A stretch of DNA of 7,600 nt, taken from IMG/VR virus record IMGVR_UViG_2651869755_000012, one strand, 5' to 3'. The notes under the pieces were generated by a model that made no database searches, was not told where the DNA came from, and was given only the letters and a program-made list of their open reading frames with translations. The position numbers and the translations under genes are program-made. Shown here piece after piece: positions 1-7,600 of this stretch. The stretch's first letter is position 1. Each line of letters opens with the position of its first letter. The DNA comes from a virus (taxonomy: Duplodnaviria; Heunggongvirae; Uroviricota; Caudoviricetes).

Positions 1-2
1 TT

Positions 3-188
3 ACCGAAACGCAAGCAGATGAGCTGATTTTTCCGTCCCTTCGCAGGGCAAACCTGGCGCTGCGCAGGGCGAAAAGTGATGTTCAGAAGTGGGAGCGAGT
101 CTGCGCCGCGCTGCGGGAGCTGAACAAGCACCGGGATATTGTTCGACAGATTACTGATTCTTCCCGCCGTGTTGTATCGGAAAAGTGA
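3..188 (+). CDS. 3' end of an upstream phage gene of unknown function (C-terminal 61 codons; 5' end lies outside the window)
   Basis: Open frame from the window edge (codon phase starting at nt 3) to TGA at 186-188; tail reads ...LRRANLALRRAKSDVQKWERVCAALRELNKHRDIVRQITDSSRRVVSEK. Same strand and tight spacing with the next gene. No motif recognised. Confidence 0.45.
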   Translation, partial: TETQADELIFPSLRRANLALRRAKSDVQKWERVCAALRELNKHRDIVRQITDSSRRVVSEK

Positions 189-203
189 TTGCCGGAGGCG
201 CTT

Positions 204-629
204 ATGGCAAAAGTATTTACACAAGAAGAGCGGGAAAAAATTAAAGGGCAGGTTGTTGAACTTGTACGTCTGAGCGGTCGCGAGACGTTGCGGCAACTGG
301 AAGCCAAGACAGGTGCGACAAGATATCTGATGAGTGTTCTCGCCAGAGAGCTGGTTGCCAGTGGCGATGTATACAACTCTGGTTACGGGTTATTCCCGTC
401 TGAACAGGCGCGTAAGGACTGGCAAAATGCTCGCAAAAAACTCTCAAGGGCAAAGGTGAAGAAACCTGCAGTGGTTGATCCGGACCTTATCTGGTCGTTA
501 CCAGACGGCGAAATACGCCGCTACGACAGGCGCCTGAATATAATCTGTCGCGAGTGCCGGAAGAGCGAAGCTATGCAGCGTGTACTGGCATTTTATCAAG
601 GAAATGTTAGGTATTTTAGACGTTACTAG
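204..629 (+). CDS. Hypothetical phage protein (141 aa), function unknown
   Basis: ATG at 204 preceded by GGAGG (193-197) at good spacing; the six-frame ORF 189..629 starts at an upstream TTG which I do not favour. Basic C-terminus; no catalytic motif recognised. Confidence 0.55.
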   Translation: MAKVFTQEEREKIKGQVVELVRLSGRETLRQLEAKTGATRYLMSVLARELVASGDVYNSGYGLFPSEQARKDWQNARKKLSRAKVKKPAVVDPDLIWSLPDGEIRRYDRRLNIICRECRKSEAMQRVLAFYQGNVRYFRRY

Positions 630-782
630 ATTAAAGAGCATTAGTTCAGATGTGAATTGACATTTTCATGGCGCAGGGTAGAGCCAGCGTGGTTGTCCGC
701 TTTGCGTCAAAACCAGATATTACCAGATTTAGACATATATTCCCGATAGCCCTGCTCTGATGCTACACTCTGTGCTATTTTC

Positions 783-1469
783 ATGACCCCAATAAAAATA
801 TTTATGACTATTGCTGATTTCAAACGGCCTAAATTGGAGCTCCCAAACGGGGCAAACAAACTACTACTGCACTCTTGCTGTGCTCCATGTTCCGGTGAAG
901 TGATGGAGGCGCTTCAGGCCTCGGGAATCGACTACACCATCTTTTTCTACAACCCGAACATTCATCCTCAGAAAGAGTATTTAATTCGTAAGGATGAAAA
1001 TATTCGCTTTGCTGAACAACACGGCGTGCCGTTTATCGATGCTGATTACGACACCGACAACTGGTTTGAACGTGCCAAAGGAATGGAATGGGAGCCTGAG
1101 AGGGGGATCCGTTGTACCATGTGTTTTGACATGCGTTTTGAGCGGACAGCGTTGTACGCTGCTGAAAATGGTTTCAGTGTGATCAGCAGTTCACTGGGCA
1201 TTTCACGCTGGAAAAATATGCAGCAGGTTAACGAGTGTGGGCGGCGAGCTGTTGCGCATTATCCGGGTATGGTGTACTGGGATTATAACTGGCGCAAGCA
1301 GGGCGGCTCGTCCCGTATGATTGAAATCAGCAAGCGCGAAAAATTCTATCAGCAGGAATATTGTGGCTGTGTGTATTCTCTGCGCGATACCAATCTACAC
1401 CGCAAATCTCAGGGACGCCCTCTTATCAAAATTGGCCAACTCCACTACGGAAAAGAAGAGAAGGAGTGA
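783..1469 (+). CDS. queH: QueH-type epoxyqueuosine reductase (DUF208 family)
   Basis: Translation carries the Cys motifs I associate with DUF208/QueH: [11 protein letters not shown] (CCAPC at nt 876-890), CTMCFDMRF and YCGCVYSL. Length 228 aa fits the family. Start could alternatively be the ATG at 804; neither has a strong SD. Confidence 0.75.
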
Positions 1470-1501
1470 TTTTATGGATCACCTTTCTGATTGATTTCAT
1501 A

Positions 1502-1530
1502 TTGGCGAGGTGACGTGAGTTAAGTAGAAT
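1502..1530 (+). promoter_or_regulatory. Putative sigma70 promoter of the hok mRNA (TTGGCG -17- TAGAAT)
   Basis: -35-like TTGGCG at 1502-1507, 17-bp spacer, -10 TAGAAT at 1525-1530. Predicted start near 1537 falls on GCTGCGGGTGCTTGAGGC, which resembles the 5' end of plasmid R1 hok mRNA (GGCGCTTGAGGC) as I recall it. Confidence 0.5.
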
Positions 1531-1599
1531 GGCTGCGGGTGCTTGAGGCTATCTGTCTCAGGCATGAACACTGAAAGGCAGATAGAGAAAAGCCCCAGT

Positions 1600-1667
1600 T
1601 AACATTTCGCGTCCTGCAAGACGCTTAACATTAATCTGAGGCCCAATCTATGTCTCACAAATGTAGG
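1600..1667 (-). ncRNA. Putative Sok-like antisense RNA (position inferred, ends uncertain)
   Basis: On the minus strand, TTGCCT (complement of + 1697-1702), 17-bp spacer, TAACCT (complement of + 1674-1679) form a weak promoter that would transcribe antisense across the mok-like start (ATGTCTCAC at + 1650). This matches the architecture of hok/sok loci. No clear terminator was found, so the 3' end is a guess. Confidence 0.25.
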
Positions 1668-1706
1668 TTAGCCTCTTACGTGCCGAAAGGCAAGGGGAAG
1701 CAGGCT

Positions 1707-1862
1707 ATGAAGCAGCAAAAGGCGATGTTAATCGCCCTGATCGTCATCTGTTTAACCGTCATTGTGACGGCACTGGTAACGAGGAAAGACCTCTGCGAGG
1801 TACGAATCCGAACCGGCCAGACGGAGGTCGCTGTCTTCACAGCTTACGAACCTGAGGAGTAA
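1707..1862 (+). CDS. hokD: Hok/Gef family type I toxin (51 aa), HokD-like
   Basis: MKQQKAMLIALIVICLTVIVTALVTRKDLCEVRIRTGQTEVAVFTAYEPEE: single N-terminal transmembrane helix and the conserved family core. From memory this matches E. coli HokD/RelF closely. An in-frame upstream ATG at 1650 (ORF 1650..1862) corresponds to the mok-like start; AAGGGGAAG lies ahead of the ATG at 1707. Confidence 0.85.
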   Translation: MKQQKAMLIALIVICLTVIVTALVTRKDLCEVRIRTGQTEVAVFTAYEPEE

Positions 1863-1930
1863 GAGACCCGGCGGGGGAGTAATCTCCCGCCACCTCTGAT
1901 GTGCCAGGCATCCTCAACGCACCCGCACTT

Positions 1931-1951
1931 AACCCGCTTCGGCGGGTTTTT
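1931..1951 (+). terminator. Rho-independent terminator ending the hok transcript
   Basis: Hairpin CCCGC-TTCG-GCGGG (1933-1946) followed by TTTTT (1947-1951). Confidence 0.7.
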
Positions 1952-1962
1952 GCATTAGTCTG

Positions 1963-1992
1963 GTTGACAAAAATAGAAAAATGCGAAAATAT
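1963..1992 (+). promoter_or_regulatory. Putative promoter of the two-gene insert (consensus -35 TTGACA)
   Basis: Perfect TTGACA at 1963-1968; weak -10 candidate AAATAT at 1987-1992 (18-bp spacer) inside an A-rich tract; the first ATG of the module is at 2028. Confidence 0.4.
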
Positions 1993-2027
1993 GTGGTTTA
2001 CGAATTCTAAAAAAAGCGAAACTTGAA

Positions 2028-2678
2028 ATGAATGAAAATCAGTTAGCTCCTTGTTGGGAATTTCAACCTTATCTTGCTGAAAACTATGTTCGCCACTTGT
2101 TGGCGGAGATCGCTAACGTACTTGAGCAGCTGTACTATCATAAGCACGCATTAGACAGCAACTGGTCTGAAGGTGTAAGGGCTTATGATTGGGTCAGAAA
2201 TCATCTTATTCAAAATGAAGATGCAATTCCTGGCCTTGAGATGATTTCCAAGGGGTTGGACTATGTAGTTGCTTTAAATAAAGTTCCGCTACAATTTACC
2301 AAAGATTGCATTAATAACCCCAAAAAGAAACATCGTCTGCGTCGAAATAAAGTAGAGTATGAGCAGCTCTCATTGTTTGGTGATGTTGAGGCTGAGCAAG
2401 ATATTACATGGCGAGTCATAGCTGAGCCTTTTTTATCCGAAGAGGGCGATGGTGAATTAGAGTCCACACTGCCTCGTTGGGAGGTAGCTCTTGTTGGATT
2501 TAATACTTATGGTGCTCAGATTAGTATAGTTTCTCATCAATCTACAGCATCGATGCCGCTTATGCCTCTTGATTATAACACACTCCCTGACGAAGCGGAG
2601 ATTAATAAGGTGCCTCTTCGTCGGCGTACGAAGGATAAAGATTTGGATGTGAGCAGTGATGGAACATCAGGTGAATAA
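2028..2678 (+). CDS. Unknown-function protein (216 aa), first gene of a two-gene module with the downstream HTH-peptidase
   Basis: Long ORF in an AT-rich segment, ATG at 2028, stop TAA at 2676-2678 overlapping the next gene's start by 20 nt. Acidic protein with a basic patch (KKKHRLRRNK); no transmembrane segment or catalytic motif recognised. Confidence 0.6.
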   Translation: MNENQLAPCWEFQPYLAENYVRHLLAEIANVLEQLYYHKHALDSNWSEGVRAYDWVRNHLIQNEDAIPGLEMISKGLDYVVALNKVPLQFTKDCINNPKKKHRLRRNKVEYEQLSLFGDVEAEQDITWRVIAEPFLSEEGDGELESTLPRWEVALVGFNTYGAQISIVSHQSTASMPLMPLDYNTLPDEAEINKVPLRRRTKDKDLDVSSDGTSGE

Positions 2679-3762
2679 CTTCACTGAGTATCGGGGTGAT
2701 AAGCTCAAACTAGCGAGAATGGCTGTTGGGCTTTCTTGTGAAGAGTTAGCCGAAAAAATTGGCAAGACAAAGCAATTCGTTAGCAAACTGGAGAAGGGGT
2801 GCAGGCCATCGGAGCAATGTCTTGAGTTAATATCTTCAGCGCTTATGATTAAGTCCAGTTTTCTTTTTACTGAACGAAAATACGCTCTGGAAAGTGATGT
2901 CTGCCATTTTCGGAGTAAGAAGTCCAGGACTCAAACGCTGACTAATAGTGTATTGGCCAGGGCTGAGATTCTTAATATTATAATTTCTGCTGTTGAAGGT
3001 GAAATCGAATTTCCTGACGTTAACATACCGGAGCACCCAGGGGCTGAATTACTTACTCCGAATGATATTGAGCGAGTGGCAGAAGATTGTCGCCGTGCCT
3101 GGAATTTAGGTCTTGGCCCTATATCATCAATGGTTAAATTGGCGGAGAGTTTAGGGGTAATCGTTGCGCATGTTACGGGAGTCGATGATCGTGTTGATGC
3201 TTTTACTGTTCACAATAACAGGCCTGTTATCATCAGGAACAATGTTAAAAAAAGCATATGTAGATTTCGCTCTGATTTAGGTCATGAATTAGGGCATTTA
3301 GTAATGCATGAGGGCATAACGACAGGTGATAAACTTACGGAATCACAAGCCGATCACTTTTCGAGCGCCTTATTAGTTCCCAGGTTATCTTTCATTAAAG
3401 AATTTCCACGAATACGAGGTAAGCAATTCGACTGGAATGCTCTGGTTGAATTTAAACTTAGATGGAAAATCAGCCTTAAAATGTGTATTTATCGAGCCAG
3501 CGCATTAGGCTTATTGACCCAGGAACAGGCAAGAACTGGCTATATGCATCTTAATTCCAGAGGGTATACGAGAGTTGAACCTGGTGATGAACTTTTGCGC
3601 CCTGAAGAACCCGGCATGCTGGCCGAGGCGATTGAAATGCTGGATGATGCAACCTGGCTAAGAATTCTTATGAAAACTGGCTTGAGCCAAGATTTAATTC
3701 GTGAGTTGTTCTCCATCAACAGACCTATTACAAATCCAAGAAATATTTTCCAGATTGTTTGA
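2659..3762 (+). CDS. Fused XRE-family HTH / ImmA-IrrE (COG2856, M78-like) zinc metallopeptidase, 367 aa
   Basis: N-terminal XRE-type helix-turn-helix (LARMAVGLSCEELAEKIGKTKQFVSKLEKG) and a central HEXXH zinc site (HELGH at nt 3283-3297, within DLGHELGHLVMHEG), plus about 150 aa of C-terminal extension. ATG at 2659 (GTG at 2656 also possible); stop TGA 3760-3762. Confidence 0.8.
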   Translation: MEHQVNNFTEYRGDKLKLARMAVGLSCEELAEKIGKTKQFVSKLEKGCRPSEQCLELISSALMIKSSFLFTERKYALESDVCHFRSKKSRTQTLTNSVLARAEILNIIISAVEGEIEFPDVNIPEHPGAELLTPNDIERVAEDCRRAWNLGLGPISSMVKLAESLGVIVAHVTGVDDRVDAFTVHNNRPVIIRNNVKKSICRFRSDLGHELGHLVMHEGITTGDKLTESQADHFSSALLVPRLSFIKEFPRIRGKQFDWNALVEFKLRWKISLKMCIYRASALGLLTQEQARTGYMHLNSRGYTRVEPGDELLRPEEPGMLAEAIEMLDDATWLRILMKTGLSQDLIRELFSINRPITNPRNIFQIV

Positions 3763-3766
3763 GTAT

Positions 3767-3787
3767 ACCCGCTTCGGCGGGTTTTTT
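3767..3787 (+). terminator. Rho-independent terminator after the two-gene module (same hairpin as at 1932-1951)
   Basis: CCCGC-TTCG-GCGGG (3768-3781) followed by TTTTTT (3782-3787); the 20-mer ACCCGCTTCGGCGGGTTTTT is identical to 1932-1951. Confidence 0.7.
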
Positions 3788-3806
3788 GTTTTTATTTTCA
3801 ACGTGT

Positions 3807-3836
3807 TTGAAGTTTTGGACGGTGCCAGAATAGAAT
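3807..3836 (+). promoter_or_regulatory. Putative sigma70 promoter (TTGAAG -18- TAGAAT)
   Basis: TTGAAG at 3807-3812, 18-bp spacer, TAGAAT at 3831-3836, upstream of the ORF starting at 3872. Confidence 0.4.
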
Positions 3837-3871
3837 CAAAAATACTTAAGTAGCGCGCAGGGAGAAGAGGG

Positions 3872-4093
3872 ATGGACCCCGAACAGGGGGAGTGCTATTT
3901 ATCTGGAAGGATTCTGTTGATGAAAATCGAAGAATTACGTGAAATTTTTAGTGAAGATGGCCTCTATGCTGTGCGCGTTGAGAATGGGGGTATTACCTAC
4001 ACAGCGTTAATTCCTGATGATCATGTAGTGTTATCTGTTGAGGCATTCATTGAATACTTGGAAAGACTCGGTTTCAAGGTAGTTCGGGAATAA
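3872..4093 (+). CDS. Small hypothetical phage protein (73 aa; alternative start ATG 3920 gives 57 aa)
   Basis: ORF with GGAG at 3861-3864 ahead of ATG 3872; the internal in-frame ATG at 3920 has GGAAGGA at 3904-3910. No motif recognised. Confidence 0.45.
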   Translation: MDPEQGECYLSGRILLMKIEELREIFSEDGLYAVRVENGGITYTALIPDDHVVLSVEAFIEYLERLGFKVVRE

Positions 4094-4152
4094 GTTATAA
4101 TACGTGAGCCAGCCTGAACAACTGGCAACCTGCAGCGCCATTGGAGATGACA

Positions 4153-4425
4153 ATGGCGCATAATTTCAAATTTCGCAATTCTGATTCTGCCTTTGCCAGC
4201 AGGCACGGGTGGCGTTCTCACGCATTCAAATATGACTGGTATCAGCACGATCCCTGTACTGAAGAACAGGCCGAATGGCTGATTCATAACTACCGCAGAC
4301 GTGGATATGAGTTTAGGAAAGCCCTCACCCTCGATTATCGTCACTGGATAATCTACGTCAGACTCCCTTATTCCGAACGCCCACCGCGTCCGTCCCGCAC
4401 ATTCCAGCAACGCATCTGGAGGTAA
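4153..4425 (+). CDS. Hypothetical phage protein (about 90 aa)
   Basis: ORF 4141..4425 in the track (TTG start); I prefer ATG 4153 with TGGAGA at 4142-4147. Stop TAA 4423-4425 lies 1 nt before the next gene's GTG. Trp/Arg/His-rich; no motif recognised. Confidence 0.4.
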   Translation: MAHNFKFRNSDSAFASRHGWRSHAFKYDWYQHDPCTEEQAEWLIHNYRRRGYEFRKALTLDYRHWIIYVRLPYSERPPRPSRTFQQRIWR

Positions 4426-4426
4426 C

Positions 4427-5473
4427 GTGCGGGTATTACTTCGACCTGTTCTGGTACCGGAACTCGGGCTGGTGATCGTTAAGCCGGGCCGTGAATCCAT
4501 GCCGGTATTCCACAATACCCGGGTACTGGTGGAGCCGGAACCGAAAAGCATGCGTAATCTGCCGTCCGGGGTCGTTCCTGCCGTTCGCCAGCCGCTGGCG
4601 GAGGATAAATCATTACTGCCATTTTTCAGCGACGAACGAGTGATTCGTGCTGCTGGTGGCGCTGGCGCATTGTCTGATTGGTTACTGCGCCATGTTAAAT
4701 CCTGCCAGTGGCCACACGGCGATTATCACCACAGTGAAACCGTCATTCACCGTTATGGTACCGGCGCAATGGTGTTGTGCTGGCACTGCGACAACCAGCT
4801 GCGCGACCAGACCTCCGAATCACTCGGGCAACTTGCTCACCAAAACCTGTCTGCATGGATGATTGACGTCATACGCCATGCAATGAATGGCTCGCAGGAA
4901 CGGGAATTATCGCTGGCTGAATTATCCTGGTGGGCGGTCCGCAATCAGGTGGCGGACGCGCTACCGGAAGCGGTATTACGTCGTTCGCTGGGGTTGCGTG
5001 CGGAAAAAATCCGCTCAATGTACCGTGAAAGCGACATCGTACCGGGAGAGCAGACCGCCACCAGCATACTGAAGCAGCGCACAAAAAATCTTGCGCCGCT
5101 GCCTCACGCCCACCAGCAAAACCCGCCACAGGAAGAGACGGTGGTCAGCATTGCCGTTGATCCTGAGTCTCCGGAATCTTTCATGAAACGACCTAAACGT
5201 CGCCGCTGGGTTAACGAGAAATACACACGCTGGGTGAAGACACAGCCGTGTGCGTGTTGTGGTAAGCCAGCCGACGATCCCCATCACCTGATTGGTCATG
5301 GTCAGGGCGGAATGGGGACAAAATCTCACGATATTTTCACGCTACCGCTGTGTCGGGAGCATCACAACGAGCTTCATGCGGATCCTCTGGCGTTCGAAGA
5401 AAAGCATGGTTCTCAGGTTGATTTAATTTTTCGTTTTCTTGATCACGCCTTTGCAACTGGCGTGCTTGGGTAA
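4427..5473 (+). CDS. DUF968 family phage protein (YdfU-like) with C-terminal Cys/His nuclease-like motif
   Basis: GTG start at 4427 preceded by GGAGG (4418-4422). C-terminal region KTQPCACCGKPADDPHHLIGHGQGGMGTKSHDIFTLPLCREHHNELH resembles the YbcO/DUF1364-type motif found in DUF968 proteins of lambdoid prophages. Position (upstream of rusA and Q) matches Qin-type prophages. Confidence 0.7.
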   Translation: MRVLLRPVLVPELGLVIVKPGRESMPVFHNTRVLVEPEPKSMRNLPSGVVPAVRQPLAEDKSLLPFFSDERVIRAAGGAGALSDWLLRHVKSCQWPHGDYHHSETVIHRYGTGAMVLCWHCDNQLRDQTSESLGQLAHQNLSAWMIDVIRHAMNGSQERELSLAELSWWAVRNQVADALPEAVLRRSLGLRAEKIRSMYRESDIVPGEQTATSILKQRTKNLAPLPHAHQQNPPQEETVVSIAVDPESPESFMKRPKRRRWVNEKYTRWVKTQPCACCGKPADDPHHLIGHGQGGMGTKSHDIFTLPLCREHHNELHADPLAFEEKHGSQVDLIFRFLDHAFATGVLG

Positions 5474-5485
5474 AAGAGGTGACTG

Positions 5486-5845
5486 ATGCTCATAGATTTG
5501 GTTTTACCTTACCCGCCGACGGTGAACACTTACTGGCGACGCCGTGGCAGCACATATTTTATCTCGGAGGAGGGAAAGCGTTATCGCCGGGCTGTGGCGC
5601 TTATTGTTCGCCAGCAGCGGCTGAAATTAAGCCTGTCCGGAAGGCTGGCGATAAAGGTGATTGCAGAGCCACCGGATAAGCGCCGCCGCGACCTGGACAA
5701 TATCCTGAAGGCACCACTGGATGCGCTGACGCATGCCGGACTACTTATAGACGACGAGCAGTTTGATGAAATCAATATTGTGCGCGGTCAGCTCGTTCCT
5801 GGTGGGCGGCTGGGGATAAAAATCACAGAACTGGAGTGCGCATGA
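5486..5845 (+). CDS. rusA: RusA Holliday-junction resolvase (crossover junction endodeoxyribonuclease)
   Basis: 119 aa; PYPPTVNTYW N-terminus and PDKRRRDLDNILKAPLDALTHAGLLIDD match the RusA active-site region (PDRRRRDLDN in DLP12 RusA as I recall). SD AAGAGGTGA at 5474-5482. Confidence 0.85.
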   Translation: MLIDLVLPYPPTVNTYWRRRGSTYFISEEGKRYRRAVALIVRQQRLKLSLSGRLAIKVIAEPPDKRRRDLDNILKAPLDALTHAGLLIDDEQFDEINIVRGQLVPGGRLGIKITELECA

Positions 5846-6531
5846 ATAACCAGTATTTACAGTTTGTGCGTGAGCAGCTCATTATCGCCACCGCTGATTT
5901 GAGTGGGGCAACAAAAGGTCAGCTTGAAGCCTGGCAGGAGAATGCCATGTTCGATACAGGGCGTTACAGGCGTAAAAAAATCCGGTACCGCGATGAAGTG
6001 ACCGGAAAAATGATAACGCGGGATAATCCACCAATCCCGGGAAAACAATCGCTGGCGAAGGGGACGTCAATTCCTCTGGTCAGTCAGGTTGCTTTTTCTA
6101 CATCATCATGGCGGCGGGCTGTTTTGTCTCTTGAAGAACATCATAAAGCCTGGTTGTTGTGGTGTTACAGCGGAAATACTTGCTGGGAGTATCAGATCGC
6201 GATAACGCAGTGGGCATGGACAGAATTTAAGACTCACTCTGGTACCAGGAAAATTGCAGGGAAGACACAGGAACGCCTGAAAAAATTAATCTGGCTGGCT
6301 GCACAGGATGTCAGGAGATGGGTTATAGGACATGATATCTACCAGCAACAGGAGCTTGCCCGTCTGTGTGGGATTAAGCCTGACAACTGGAGCCACAATT
6401 ATGTGAGCTACTGGCGTGAAATACTCGACATTTTTATGAACCTCGATACCGAATCTCTGATTTGCACTGTGAAAAGGAGATCTCAACAAAAAGCGGCATT
6501 TTTGCAGCGAGATATTGCAAAAGTCAATTAG
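5842..6531 (+). CDS. Putative Q-like late antiterminator (229 aa)
   Basis: ATG at 5842 overlaps the rusA stop (ATGA, 5842-5845). The gene sits directly downstream of rusA and directly upstream of an intergenic terminator, the canonical place for Q in lambdoid phages. Assignment is by position and size; no diagnostic motif was verified. Confidence 0.5.
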   Translation: MNNQYLQFVREQLIIATADLSGATKGQLEAWQENAMFDTGRYRRKKIRYRDEVTGKMITRDNPPIPGKQSLAKGTSIPLVSQVAFSTSSWRRAVLSLEEHHKAWLLWCYSGNTCWEYQIAITQWAWTEFKTHSGTRKIAGKTQERLKKLIWLAAQDVRRWVIGHDIYQQQELARLCGIKPDNWSHNYVSYWREILDIFMNLDTESLICTVKRRSQQKAAFLQRDIAKVN

Positions 6532-6578
6532 ATAGCATATATTTTATGTAAATGTGATATATTGCTGTAAAGTGTATA

Positions 6579-6605
6579 AACCCGCTCAAATGTGCGGGTT
6601 TTTTG
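6579..6605 (+). terminator. Rho-independent terminator (tR'-like) downstream of the Q-like gene
   Basis: CCCGC (6581-6585), 8-nt loop, GCGGG (6594-6598), then TTTTTT (6599-6604). An AT-rich promoter-like stretch at 6532-6580 precedes it, with a TATAAA-like hexamer at 6575-6580 (promoter not confidently resolved). Confidence 0.6.
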
Positions 6606-6677
6606 CTTAACTCTGTGGACCTTTTTATCTGTAGTTGTAATATATGGATATTGTTACAATTTAGGTCGGTGAGCTTA

Positions 6678-7355
6678 ATGGAAGAACAGCACGGTAATTA
6701 CTTTATAAAACGAATTCAGTTGATTGGAAGAGGGGCATTTGGCTTTGTTGAACACGTTAAGGTTTACAACCTCAATAAAGGTGAATGCGGGGATTATGCT
6801 AGAAAGGTTTTAGCACCCGAAAAACCAGAGCTTTTGGCGCAAATAGAGCAGTTTAGAAGGCGTTTTAAAAGGGAGGTTGTGTATCAATCACATTGCGTAC
6901 ATAGCAATATTGTTCCTATTTATTTGTGCGATTTGTTTGTTGAGAATCCATGGTTCATTATGGATAAAGCAGAATGTGATCTTGAGCACGAAATAACGAA
7001 CAACCTTCTTACAACAGATCAAAAAATTTCAATAGTGAAAATGGTATTAGATGGTGTAGCTTACATCCATGCCAAAGGCTATTTACACAGAGATATAAAA
7101 CCCTTTAATGTTTTGCGATTTAGCGACGGAACATACAAGGTGTCTGATTTTGGTCTGGTAAAAGATACGAATCCCGAAGGGGATACCACTAAATTGACCG
7201 AGATCGGTACCCGTATGGGAAGTACAAGATATATGGCTCCCGAGATTTTATATAATGCAGAGTATTCAGTTAAGACTGATGTTTATGCTGTGGGACGGTT
7301 AATTGAAGACTTAAATTTAGATGATAAAAAAATAAAGCCTATCATAGCTAAGTGA
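6678..7355 (+). CDS. Eukaryotic-like Ser/Thr protein kinase (Hanks-type), probably C-terminally truncated by IS insertion
   Basis: Gly-rich loop IGRGAFG (6723-6743), catalytic loop HRDIKPFN (7086-7109), DFG (7146-7154) and APE (7236-7244). ATG 6678 follows GGTGAG at 6668-6673; the track's TTG 6603 start lies inside the terminator. Only about 35 aa follow APE, and the stop TGA 7353-7355 is the first 3 bases of the IS terminal repeat. Confidence 0.75.
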   Translation: MEEQHGNYFIKRIQLIGRGAFGFVEHVKVYNLNKGECGDYARKVLAPEKPELLAQIEQFRRRFKREVVYQSHCVHSNIVPIYLCDLFVENPWFIMDKAECDLEHEITNNLLTTDQKISIVKMVLDGVAYIHAKGYLHRDIKPFNVLRFSDGTYKVSDFGLVKDTNPEGDTTKLTEIGTRMGSTRYMAPEILYNAEYSVKTDVYAVGRLIEDLNLDDKKIKPIIAK

Positions 7356-7600
7356 ACCGCCCCGGGTTTCCTGGAGAGTATTTTATCTGTGAACTCAGGC
7401 TGCCAGATCATCGTTTCCGATGGAAGCATAATAAGCTTTTTCTGCTTCTGCCGGAGGAGTATGGCCCAGCCTTTCCAGCAATCGTCGATTGTTATACCAG
7501 TCCACCCACGTGAGTGTGGCCAGTTCCACTTCTGCACGGTTTTTCCAGCTCTTACGGTGTATTACCTCCGCTTTGTAAAGACCATTGATGCTCTCCGCCA
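7353..7600 (-). mobile_element. Terminal part of an IS3-family insertion sequence (IS629/IS1203-like), extends beyond the window
   Basis: Terminal inverted repeat begins TGAACCGCCCCGGGTTTCCTGGAGAG at 7353; the minus strand encodes the C-terminus of an IS3-family transposase. I recall both as IS629-like. Confidence 0.8.
7395..7600 (-). CDS. IS3-family transposase OrfB, C-terminal fragment (5' end outside the window)
   Basis: Minus-strand translation ...AESINGLYKAEVIHRKSWKNRAEVELATLTWVDWYNNRRLLERLGHTPPAEAEKAYYASIGNDDLAA, stop (complement of 7395-7397). WVDWYNNRRL...LGH is the conserved C-terminal motif of IS3-family (DDE) transposases. This is a different frame from the track ORF 7283..7537. 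Confidence 0.8.
   Translation of the reverse strand, partial: AESINGLYKAEVIHRKSWKNRAEVELATLTWVDWYNNRRLLERLGHTPPAEAEKAYYASIGNDDLAA

Follow-up and report, generated by a model that had tools for sequence, protein, structure and literature searches.

Here, we identify the open reading frame (ORF) at positions 6678-7355 of a 7,600-nucleotide stretch of tailed-phage DNA (IMG/VR record IMGVR_UViG_2651869755_000012; the whole stretch is called the window below) as a gene for a Hanks-type Ser/Thr kinase that has lost its 3' end to an insertion sequence (IS). In the prophage of Escherichia coli ML35, the intact allele is the first gene of a kinase-PP2C phosphatase pair, and this pair is a conserved, mobile, self-contained and compositionally foreign operon with conserved catalytic residues. 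We suggest that the window ORF is the IS-disrupted kinase half of this two-gene temperate-phage cassette and that the intact pair forms a self-restraining exclusion module, a reading to which we assign a probability of roughly 0.5. A first-pass annotation of the sequence had proposed a eukaryotic-like Ser/Thr kinase carried as prophage cargo; the IS truncation, the obligate pairing with PP2C and the position just after the antiterminator gene Q and the elements pR' and tR' in the late operon go beyond that proposal. The window is the entire contig LJYC01000073.1 of assembly GCA_001306715.1, and the contig end falls inside the IS element.

Several lines of evidence identify the ORF, which lies on the plus strand and comprises 225 codons followed by TGA, as a kinase gene. 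First, the search with the Pfam hidden Markov model PF00069 (Pkinase), a check proposed in the first-pass annotation, gives 116.3 bits against a gathering cut-off of 31.7 (E 2e-33) over profile positions 3-187 of 263; a match of this strength means that the ORF is not a chance reading frame and that its identity as a kinase is secure. Second, phrog_2361 ('serine-threonine kinase') is matched with an E value of 8.5e-98 over residues 1-252 of the intact allele. Third, the motifs of Hanks subdomains I to IX, with the catalytic residues Lys43 and Asp139 among them, are all present and in order (G17xG19xxG22, K43, E66, H137-R-D139-x-K141-xx-N144, D157-F-G159, A187-P-E189 and D201), and every one of these residues is invariant across 28 relatives that share 39-74% identity with the ORF, and again in an alignment of 42 sequences. 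The features of the kinase gene are as follows.

6678..7355, plus strand: truncated Hanks-type Ser/Thr kinase ORF, residues 1-225 of the 254-residue protein WP_000392435.1, with the TGA at 7353-7355 contributed by the IS terminus.
6726..6749, plus strand: glycine-rich ATP-binding loop G17-R-G19-A-F-G22-F-V24 of subdomain I; G17, G19 and G22 invariant in both the 28- and the 42-member set.
6804..6806, plus strand: catalytic Lys43 in the 'ARK' of subdomain II, invariant.
6873-6875, plus strand: Glu66 of subdomain III, the partner of Lys43, invariant.
7086..7109, plus strand: catalytic loop H137-R-D139-I-K141-P-F-N144 of subdomain VIb (HRDxKxxN); H137, R138, D139, K141 and N144 invariant.
7146..7244, plus strand: activation segment from D157-F-G159 to A187-P-E189; DFG and E189 invariant.
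7278..7280, plus strand: Asp201 of subdomain IX, after which the window allele keeps no further conserved Hanks motif; invariant.

The catalytic loop HRDIKPFN and the P+1 loop GSTRYMAPE are of the Ser/Thr type. The activation segment holds six Ser/Thr residues (T170, T171, T174, T178, S182 and T183) as candidate autophosphorylation sites, and residues 162-180 are modeled with low confidence, consistent with a flexible loop. An alternative TTG start at 6603, giving 250 residues, was rejected because the family alignment and the RefSeq annotation agree on the ATG at 6678. The intact protein is a kinase domain alone, in which Pfam finds only Pkinase and PK_Tyr_Ser-Thr, and it is without some 30-50 residues in the alphaG region, between alphaF and the last helices, that are present in PknB and in Stk of phage 933W. 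Its AlphaFold model has a mean confidence (pLDDT) of 88.9, and its best PDB matches are the PknB kinase domains of Mycobacterium tuberculosis and Staphylococcus aureus. No NCBIfam family reaches its own cut-off for this kinase, so that the RefSeq name 'serine/threonine-protein kinase' is generic.

The window copy of the gene ends in an IS. Positions 1-7354 are 100.000% identical to the ML35 prophage (locus L001, 1602-8955), with 0 mismatches in 7,354 bp, and the two sequences diverge after position 7354. The IS terminus TGAACC... (TGAACCGCCCCGGG...) starts at 7353 and provides the stop codon of the kinase after codon 225 (K225).

7353..7600, minus strand: terminal 248 bp of a 1310-bp IS3-family element, with 100% matches to elements annotated as IS3 family transposase.

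The element is matched at 25,216 places in E. coli genomes. Its window portion encodes the C-terminus of the transposase on the minus strand (7395-7598), with rve_2/rve_3 domains and an NCBIfam transpos_IS3 match on the C-terminal 67 residues; a full copy elsewhere measures 1310 bp, has inverted TGAACCGCCCCGGG at both ends and encodes an IS3 family transposase with a programmed frameshift. Judging from these ends, we presume the element to be IS629-like (IS629/IS1203).

The intact allele, which the first-pass annotation had recommended seeking in a related prophage, is WP_000392435.1 of ML35 (254 residues); it reads on past codon 225 as CTRMDKDDRYQTIDDV..., in full CTRMDKDDRYQTIDDVAFDFAHSFLRSES. 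Of its residues, 29 are lost to the IS, including Arg234-Tyr235 with the arginine of subdomain XI. Hence, the earlier statement that all core Hanks motifs are present holds for subdomains I to IX and fails for subdomain XI: the window allele is missing Arg234 and a complete C-lobe, both of which are present in the intact protein. Arg234 is invariant in 28/28 sequences and at least 90% conserved among 42, and in pairwise comparison Arg234-Tyr235 falls on the motif NERY in 933W Stk and on ANRY in S. aureus PknB. In Hanks kinases, the subdomain-XI arginine forms a salt bridge with the glutamate of the APE motif. In the model of the intact protein, the truncation would also eliminate helix 238-253, the last one, and cut off the end of helix 220-226. 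Because Arg234 anchors the APE glutamate in Hanks kinases and is conserved in this family, the 225-residue product is predicted to be inactive or unstable, and the window copy is probably dead, a recent IS-generated pseudogene. The absence of any mismatch to ML35 up to the IS indicates that the insertion is very recent. Two other public samples carry the same kinase::IS junction, again on contigs that end in the IS, and thus the junction is not an assembly artefact; it was found in none of 5,426 complete E. coli RefSeq genomes. Whatever phosphatase gene may follow is cut off from the window kinase by the IS. In E. coli SY033 (locus L016, NZ_CM185152.1, 2108-6992), the module has decayed a second time, independently: the same prophage carries three separate ISs there, with IS3-family elements in Q and in the PP2C gene and IS1 in the kinase gene.

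In ML35, the stop codon of the kinase gene overlaps by 4 nt the start of a gene for a 247-residue PP2C phosphatase, and this arrangement recurs throughout the family. A PP2C gene lies directly downstream in 12/12 inspected genome or phage contexts, i.e., ML35, the closest isolated phages (Escherichia phage Flotzy, 45% identity, and Cronobacter phage phiES15, 40%) and nine more genomes, from Yersinia, Pseudomonas, Vibrio, Xanthomonas, Serratia, Enterobacter, Aeromonas, Haemophilus and Ferrimonas, in which the gene directly 3' encodes a PP2C_2 protein of 234-259 residues. The same holds for 59 of the 63 IMG/VR and Pseudomonas koreensis loci with a family kinase, mostly with the 4-nt overlap. The four unpaired loci are explained by a contig end, by a frameshift, by a rearranged locus with tandem kinases and, in L161, by a longer kinase ORF that overlaps the PP2C start by 97 nt, above the pairing threshold used. 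The family comprises 205 homologues at E≤1e-10; among the 120 matches listed, all but one (217 residues) measure 241-284 residues, and kinases of about 250 residues are spread across the Gammaproteobacteria. The window allele is identical to one family member (P0001) over residues 1-225. In E. coli, the cassette is present in 50/5,426 complete genomes and always chromosomal; it is full-length in 49 of these, the fiftieth being SY033. The metal-binding motifs of the phosphatase (D40-G-x-G43, G114-D115, D195-G196 and D233-D234) are invariant. Given the conserved catalytic residues and the overlapping genes, both enzymes appear to be active and translationally coupled. The pair corresponds to phrog_2361 for the kinase and phrog_5650 for the phosphatase.

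Some variation exists within the family. Locus L129 (5998-6765) has a kinase gene split by a stop codon and an intact PP2C gene. Tandem kinase copies followed by a 366-residue PP2C are found in L150 (1-2534), kinases of about 440 residues with an extra C-terminal region in L161 (921-2956) and L162 (1554-3565), and phrog_5650 aligns to the phosphatase at positions 273-520 of 565, which hints at longer or fused forms. A profile scan of genome contigs with the family alignment retrieved mostly generic kinases (patterns HRDxKPxN and SDFGL) and one true member, L017.

The cassette is compositionally distinct from its surroundings. The kinase ORF has a GC content of 37.2% (33.6% at third codon positions), whereas the window as a whole has 46.6% and the genes Q, RusA and DUF968 lie at 47-55%, and no 678-bp segment upstream of position 6600 falls below 40.1%, in agreement with the first-pass description of the gene as AT-rich. 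In ML35, the low-GC block runs exactly from the Q stop codon to the PP2C stop codon and is flanked by DNA of 47-54% GC, so that the kinase-PP2C cassette forms a discrete block of 35-40% GC. This block, and the different slots that the cassette occupies among phages, support the earlier proposal that it was acquired separately.

In the window, the kinase gene follows Q and two candidate regulatory elements.

5836..6531, plus strand: antitermination protein Q (Pfam Phage_antiter_Q, E 5.6e-84; same annotation in ML35), which marks the start of the late operon.
6515..6543, plus strand: sigma-70 promoter-like site TTGCAA-17-TATATT, from a consensus scan, overlapping the Q stop codon and identical in ML35; candidate pR'.
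6578..6605, plus strand: intrinsic terminator with an 8-bp GC-rich stem followed by a T-run, from a terminator scan and an inverted-repeat search; candidate tR', 72 nt upstream of the kinase ATG.

From their positions relative to Q and to each other, the promoter-like site and the terminator would represent the layout expected of pR'/tR'. By eye, we also noted an imperfect palindrome, TTGTAA-N13-TTACAA, at 6635-6660 (plus strand), overlapping an extended -10-like element, TGTTACAAT, at 6652-6660, 18 nt upstream of the kinase ATG; it was missed by the repeat and promoter scans, and we give it little weight, although the region could be an operator or a weak promoter.

In ML35, the gene order is Q, terminator, kinase, PP2C, the tRNA genes for Ile/Arg/Arg (ileZ-argN-argO), a NanS-p-type esterase, and holin and lysis genes, while in phage 933W it is Q, pR', tR', ileZ-argN-argO, stx2AB, esterase and lysis genes. 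These matching orders place the cassette in the same moron hot spot as stx: like stx2AB, it is cargo downstream of Q-pR'-tR', beside ileZ-argN-argO and upstream of the NanS-p esterase and lysis genes; unlike stx2AB, to whose products its own are unrelated, it lies upstream rather than downstream of the tRNA genes. In phiES15 and in a Yersinia prophage, the cassette comes after other antiterminators; in Flotzy and in Serratia and Enterobacter prophages, it has the lysis genes on one side and terminase on the other; elsewhere, it occupies the early-left region near the integrase, giving at least four different slots among phages. In three lineages, it directly follows an S24 cI/LexA-like repressor gene on the same strand, at a distance of 346 nt in Ferrimonas (L101, 5972-8546) and of 71-96 nt in two IMG/VR lineages (L118/L119/L122/L149, 5147-6723; L132, 5178-6732). 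This post-cI slot is that of 933W stk. Lambda rexAB, transcribed in lysogens, occupies this slot as well, and expression in the lysogen is therefore implied for those lineages. Among 34 non-redundant viral loci, the upstream neighbors include lysozyme (6), Rz (3), Q-type antiterminators (5) and CI/S24 repressors (3-5), and the downstream neighbors include terminases, holins and integrases. Outside prophages, the cassette neighbors a NACHT/nSTAND3 gene as well as SymE in Xanthomonas, is accompanied by transposases and a PNP_UDP_1 protein in Pseudomonas putida, and lies among housekeeping genes in Aeromonas.

Phage exclusion, one of the two roles that the first-pass annotation had named for phage-encoded kinases of this type, would be the most plausible function by analogy. 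We suggest that the intact cassette most likely acts as a toxin-antitoxin-like phosphorylation module, in which the two enzymes would constitute a self-restraining pair similar to a type-VII toxin-antitoxin system. The kinase and its targets would be kept dephosphorylated by the phosphatase until a superinfecting phage inhibits, titrates or outlasts that enzyme and thereby frees the kinase; the freed kinase would then phosphorylate host or phage proteins in such a way that the infection is aborted. In this scenario, kinase toxicity, an antitoxin role of the phosphatase and exclusion of phages would all be properties of the cassette. Several traits of an accessory or defense-like element favor this idea, namely the low-GC block, the multiple slots, the post-repressor sites and the non-phage sites including the one with a NACHT/nSTAND3 neighbor, as does the presence of RosmerTA and hok/sok in the same prophage. 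There are also precedents. Stk of 933W excludes phage HK97 (PMC3681748), and in the KKP system a PP2C phosphatase acts as the antitoxin and is inhibited by Gp59 of phage T4, upon which the kinases phosphorylate many essential proteins (PMC11341870).

A number of observations weigh against this idea. We found no publication or experiment on this cassette in the literature. Here, as in many other prophages, the cassette is embedded in the late operon and oriented like the late genes, and the promoter consensus scan returned no sigma-70 site between the terminator and the kinase ATG, so that its expression in the lysogen is uncertain. The PADLOC matches of the kinase (mad6, PD-T4-6 and Stk2) span the generic kinase core only and are no stronger than its PknB match, and the best PADLOC match of the phosphatase (PDC-M21C, E 0.0035) is not meaningful. 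In one locus (L155, 4477-5175), which is 99.6% identical to L152, an intact kinase gene is accompanied by a frameshifted PP2C gene, which speaks against strict toxicity of the kinase unless it is a sequencing error. Lastly, the predicted loss of activity in the 225-residue allele is an argument from conservation.

Among characterized systems, the cassette would by analogy work most like KKP, without being a member of it. KKP consists of the PP2C phosphatase PfpC followed by the kinases PfkA and PfkB of 300-430 residues, with a CSD on PfkA and an FHA domain on PfkB; both kinases are needed for toxicity, and the system is found in Pf and P2/P4/Mu-like prophages (Guo et al. 2024, PMC11341870). 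Both systems are prophage-borne, place Hanks-type kinases in an operon with PP2C, and are mobile between phages and other elements, and the worked mechanism of KKP, a phosphatase antitoxin inhibited by a phage protein, is one that the cassette could share. By contrast, the cassette has a single 254-residue kinase, free of CSD, FHA or other extra domains, that precedes the PP2C gene, and its hosts are lambdoid phages, which are not listed for KKP (PMC11341870). Accordingly, we did not place the cassette in KKP. Membership in PD-T4-6, Stk2 or MAD6 of MADS was also rejected. The kinase domain does match the PADLOC profiles of these systems (E 1e-34 for PD-T4-6, 1e-27 for Stk2 and 6e-40 for mad6), but only the core of about 190 residues aligns in profiles of 292-659 positions (11-201/327, 160-348/500 and 51-243/659, respectively), the kinase scores 62.5 with NCBIfam MAD6, whose cut-off is 460, and those systems carry C-terminal domains and have no PP2C partner. 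For the PknB/PASTA families, NCBIfam scores of 103 against a cut-off of 450 and of 96 against 230 likewise led us to reject membership. The housekeeping PknB/Stp1 pairs do resemble the cassette in that kinase and phosphatase genes are adjacent, in that the kinase has its best structural matches in PknB kinase domains and in that the phosphatase resembles Stp1/PstP; however, PknB has transmembrane and PASTA domains and these pairs are chromosomal core genes, whereas the cassette kinase is cytoplasmic, minimal and mobile.

The main rival to exclusion is late host takeover or counter-defense, which we consider unlikely. According to this explanation, the cassette would be transcribed only by Q-modified RNA polymerase during lytic growth of the prophage; the kinase would phosphorylate host proteins as T7 kinase does, redirecting the cell or disarming its defenses, and the phosphatase would limit self-damage or reverse host defense kinases. 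That a phage kinase can disarm defenses is documented for T7 (PMC13645617). The location immediately after Q and the promoter/terminator pair in the late-gene orientation, the equivalent post-antiterminator sites in phiES15 and the Yersinia prophage, the lysis-terminase interval in Flotzy and in the Serratia and Enterobacter prophages, and the failure of the scan to find a consensus promoter of its own all fit takeover. Takeover accounts poorly for the chromosomal non-phage sites in Aeromonas, Xanthomonas and P. putida, and for the movement of the cassette among unrelated slots in the manner of morons; moreover, a lytic-only role does not fit the sites downstream of cI-like repressors on the repressor strand.

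The repressor-adjacent sites in some phages are also compatible with a regulatory module, in which the kinase-phosphatase balance would determine how far a host or phage regulator is phosphorylated, thereby tuning induction or host physiology, with no primary role in defense. KKP offers a precedent, as it controls Pf lysogeny via phosphorylation of the nucleoid protein MvaU (PMC11341870), and two enzymes that are both catalytically conserved and translationally coupled are what a balanced switch would be expected to have. Nevertheless, we regard this explanation as doubtful, more so than takeover: the kinase is without a sensor or targeting domain (Pfam: Pkinase only), no candidate target is identifiable from the sequence, and the occurrence of the cassette in very different phages and in non-phage islands argues against a phage-specific target.

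A third alternative concerns the window allele rather than the cassette. If the truncated 225-residue protein were still an active and possibly deregulated kinase, the IS would have created a new function and not a pseudogene. Subdomains I to IX and the promoter-proximal context are intact, there is no other change relative to ML35, and the allele is present in at least three independent samples. We nonetheless find this very improbable, in view of the conservation of Arg234 in all, or nearly all, family members inspected, of the terminal helix 238-253, which packs on the C-lobe in the model, and of the counter-selection to be expected against a toxic kinase without its phosphatase. Finally, we rejected orthology to 933W Stk, and the reading of the kinase as a tyrosine-phosphorylating exclusion kinase triggered by HK97-type infection is hardly likely at all. 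Although both are Hanks-fold kinases carried as cargo by lambdoid E. coli prophages, Stk is reported to exclude HK97 (PMC3681748) and some relatives of the cassette share its post-cI slot, the alignment proposed by the first-pass annotation, which had drawn this comparison, gives 24% identity over C-lobe residues 74-246 only (52 gap positions, pairwise E 6e-13, no alignment of the N-lobe), and 933W was not retrieved by tblastn over 50,697 phage records at E 1e-5. Stk, which is reported to phosphorylate tyrosine (PMC3681748), differs further in its size (348 compared with 254 residues), in keeping the approximately 50 residues deleted in the cassette kinase, in its catalytic loop (HFDIKPNN in place of HRDIKPFN), in having no phosphatase partner and in its location in the immunity region next to cI, compared with downstream of Q here.

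The remainder of the window covers the early-right/Q region of a lambdoid prophage. The genes upstream of the kinase are, in order, DUF977, QueH, hok/sok, the RmrT/RmrA pair, Rem, DUF968, RusA and the antiterminator Q, and these lambdoid genes bear out the view of the kinase as prophage cargo. RmrT (2028-2678, plus strand; PADLOC E 4.6e-25) and RmrA (2656-3762, plus strand; helix-turn-helix and M78 Zn-peptidase; E 6.2e-105) are encoded by overlapping genes, match the RosmerTA defense system (bioRxiv 10.1101/2022.05.11.491447) and also have a low GC content (42%); RosmerTA is a second defense-type moron of the same prophage. The hok/sok type I toxin-antitoxin locus lies at 1537-1862 (plus strand), with Rfam sok RF01794 at 1537-1712 (120.5 bits) and the end of the Hok/Gef ORF, annotated as hokD in ML35, at 1862. 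The epoxyqueuosine reductase gene QueH (783-1469, plus strand; Pfam E 1.1e-65), whose product acts in tRNA modification, is located between the replication region and hok. A small ORF at 3872-4093 (plus strand) has a precomputed Pfam match to PF27490 'Rem' and matches phrog_340 (unknown function); PF27490 was not returned for it in a separate Pfam scan at E≤0.01.

The window gene itself carries a more modest message: it is best regarded as a pseudogene recently generated by an IS, and annotation pipelines already name its family 'serine/threonine-protein kinase'. Of greater interest is the cassette in its intact, two-gene form, an uncharacterized variant of prophage kinase-phosphatase modules. 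To our knowledge, only a few kinase-based phage defense systems have been described (933W Stk, Stk2, PD-T4-6 and KKP). We tentatively propose, at somewhat less than even odds, that the mini-kinase and its PP2C partner are a minimal, two-gene toxin-antitoxin or abortive-infection system devoid of additional domains, a stripped-down analogue of KKP that is carried as a moron across the temperate phages and defense islands of Gammaproteobacteria and, in some E. coli prophages, in the slot of stx. The E. coli cassette between Q/tR' and the phage tRNA genes shows what else the stx hot spot carries. If our reading is correct, this two-gene cassette without sensor domains would be the simplest kinase-based defense and a tractable system in which to study the way a kinase is 'guarded' by a phosphatase.

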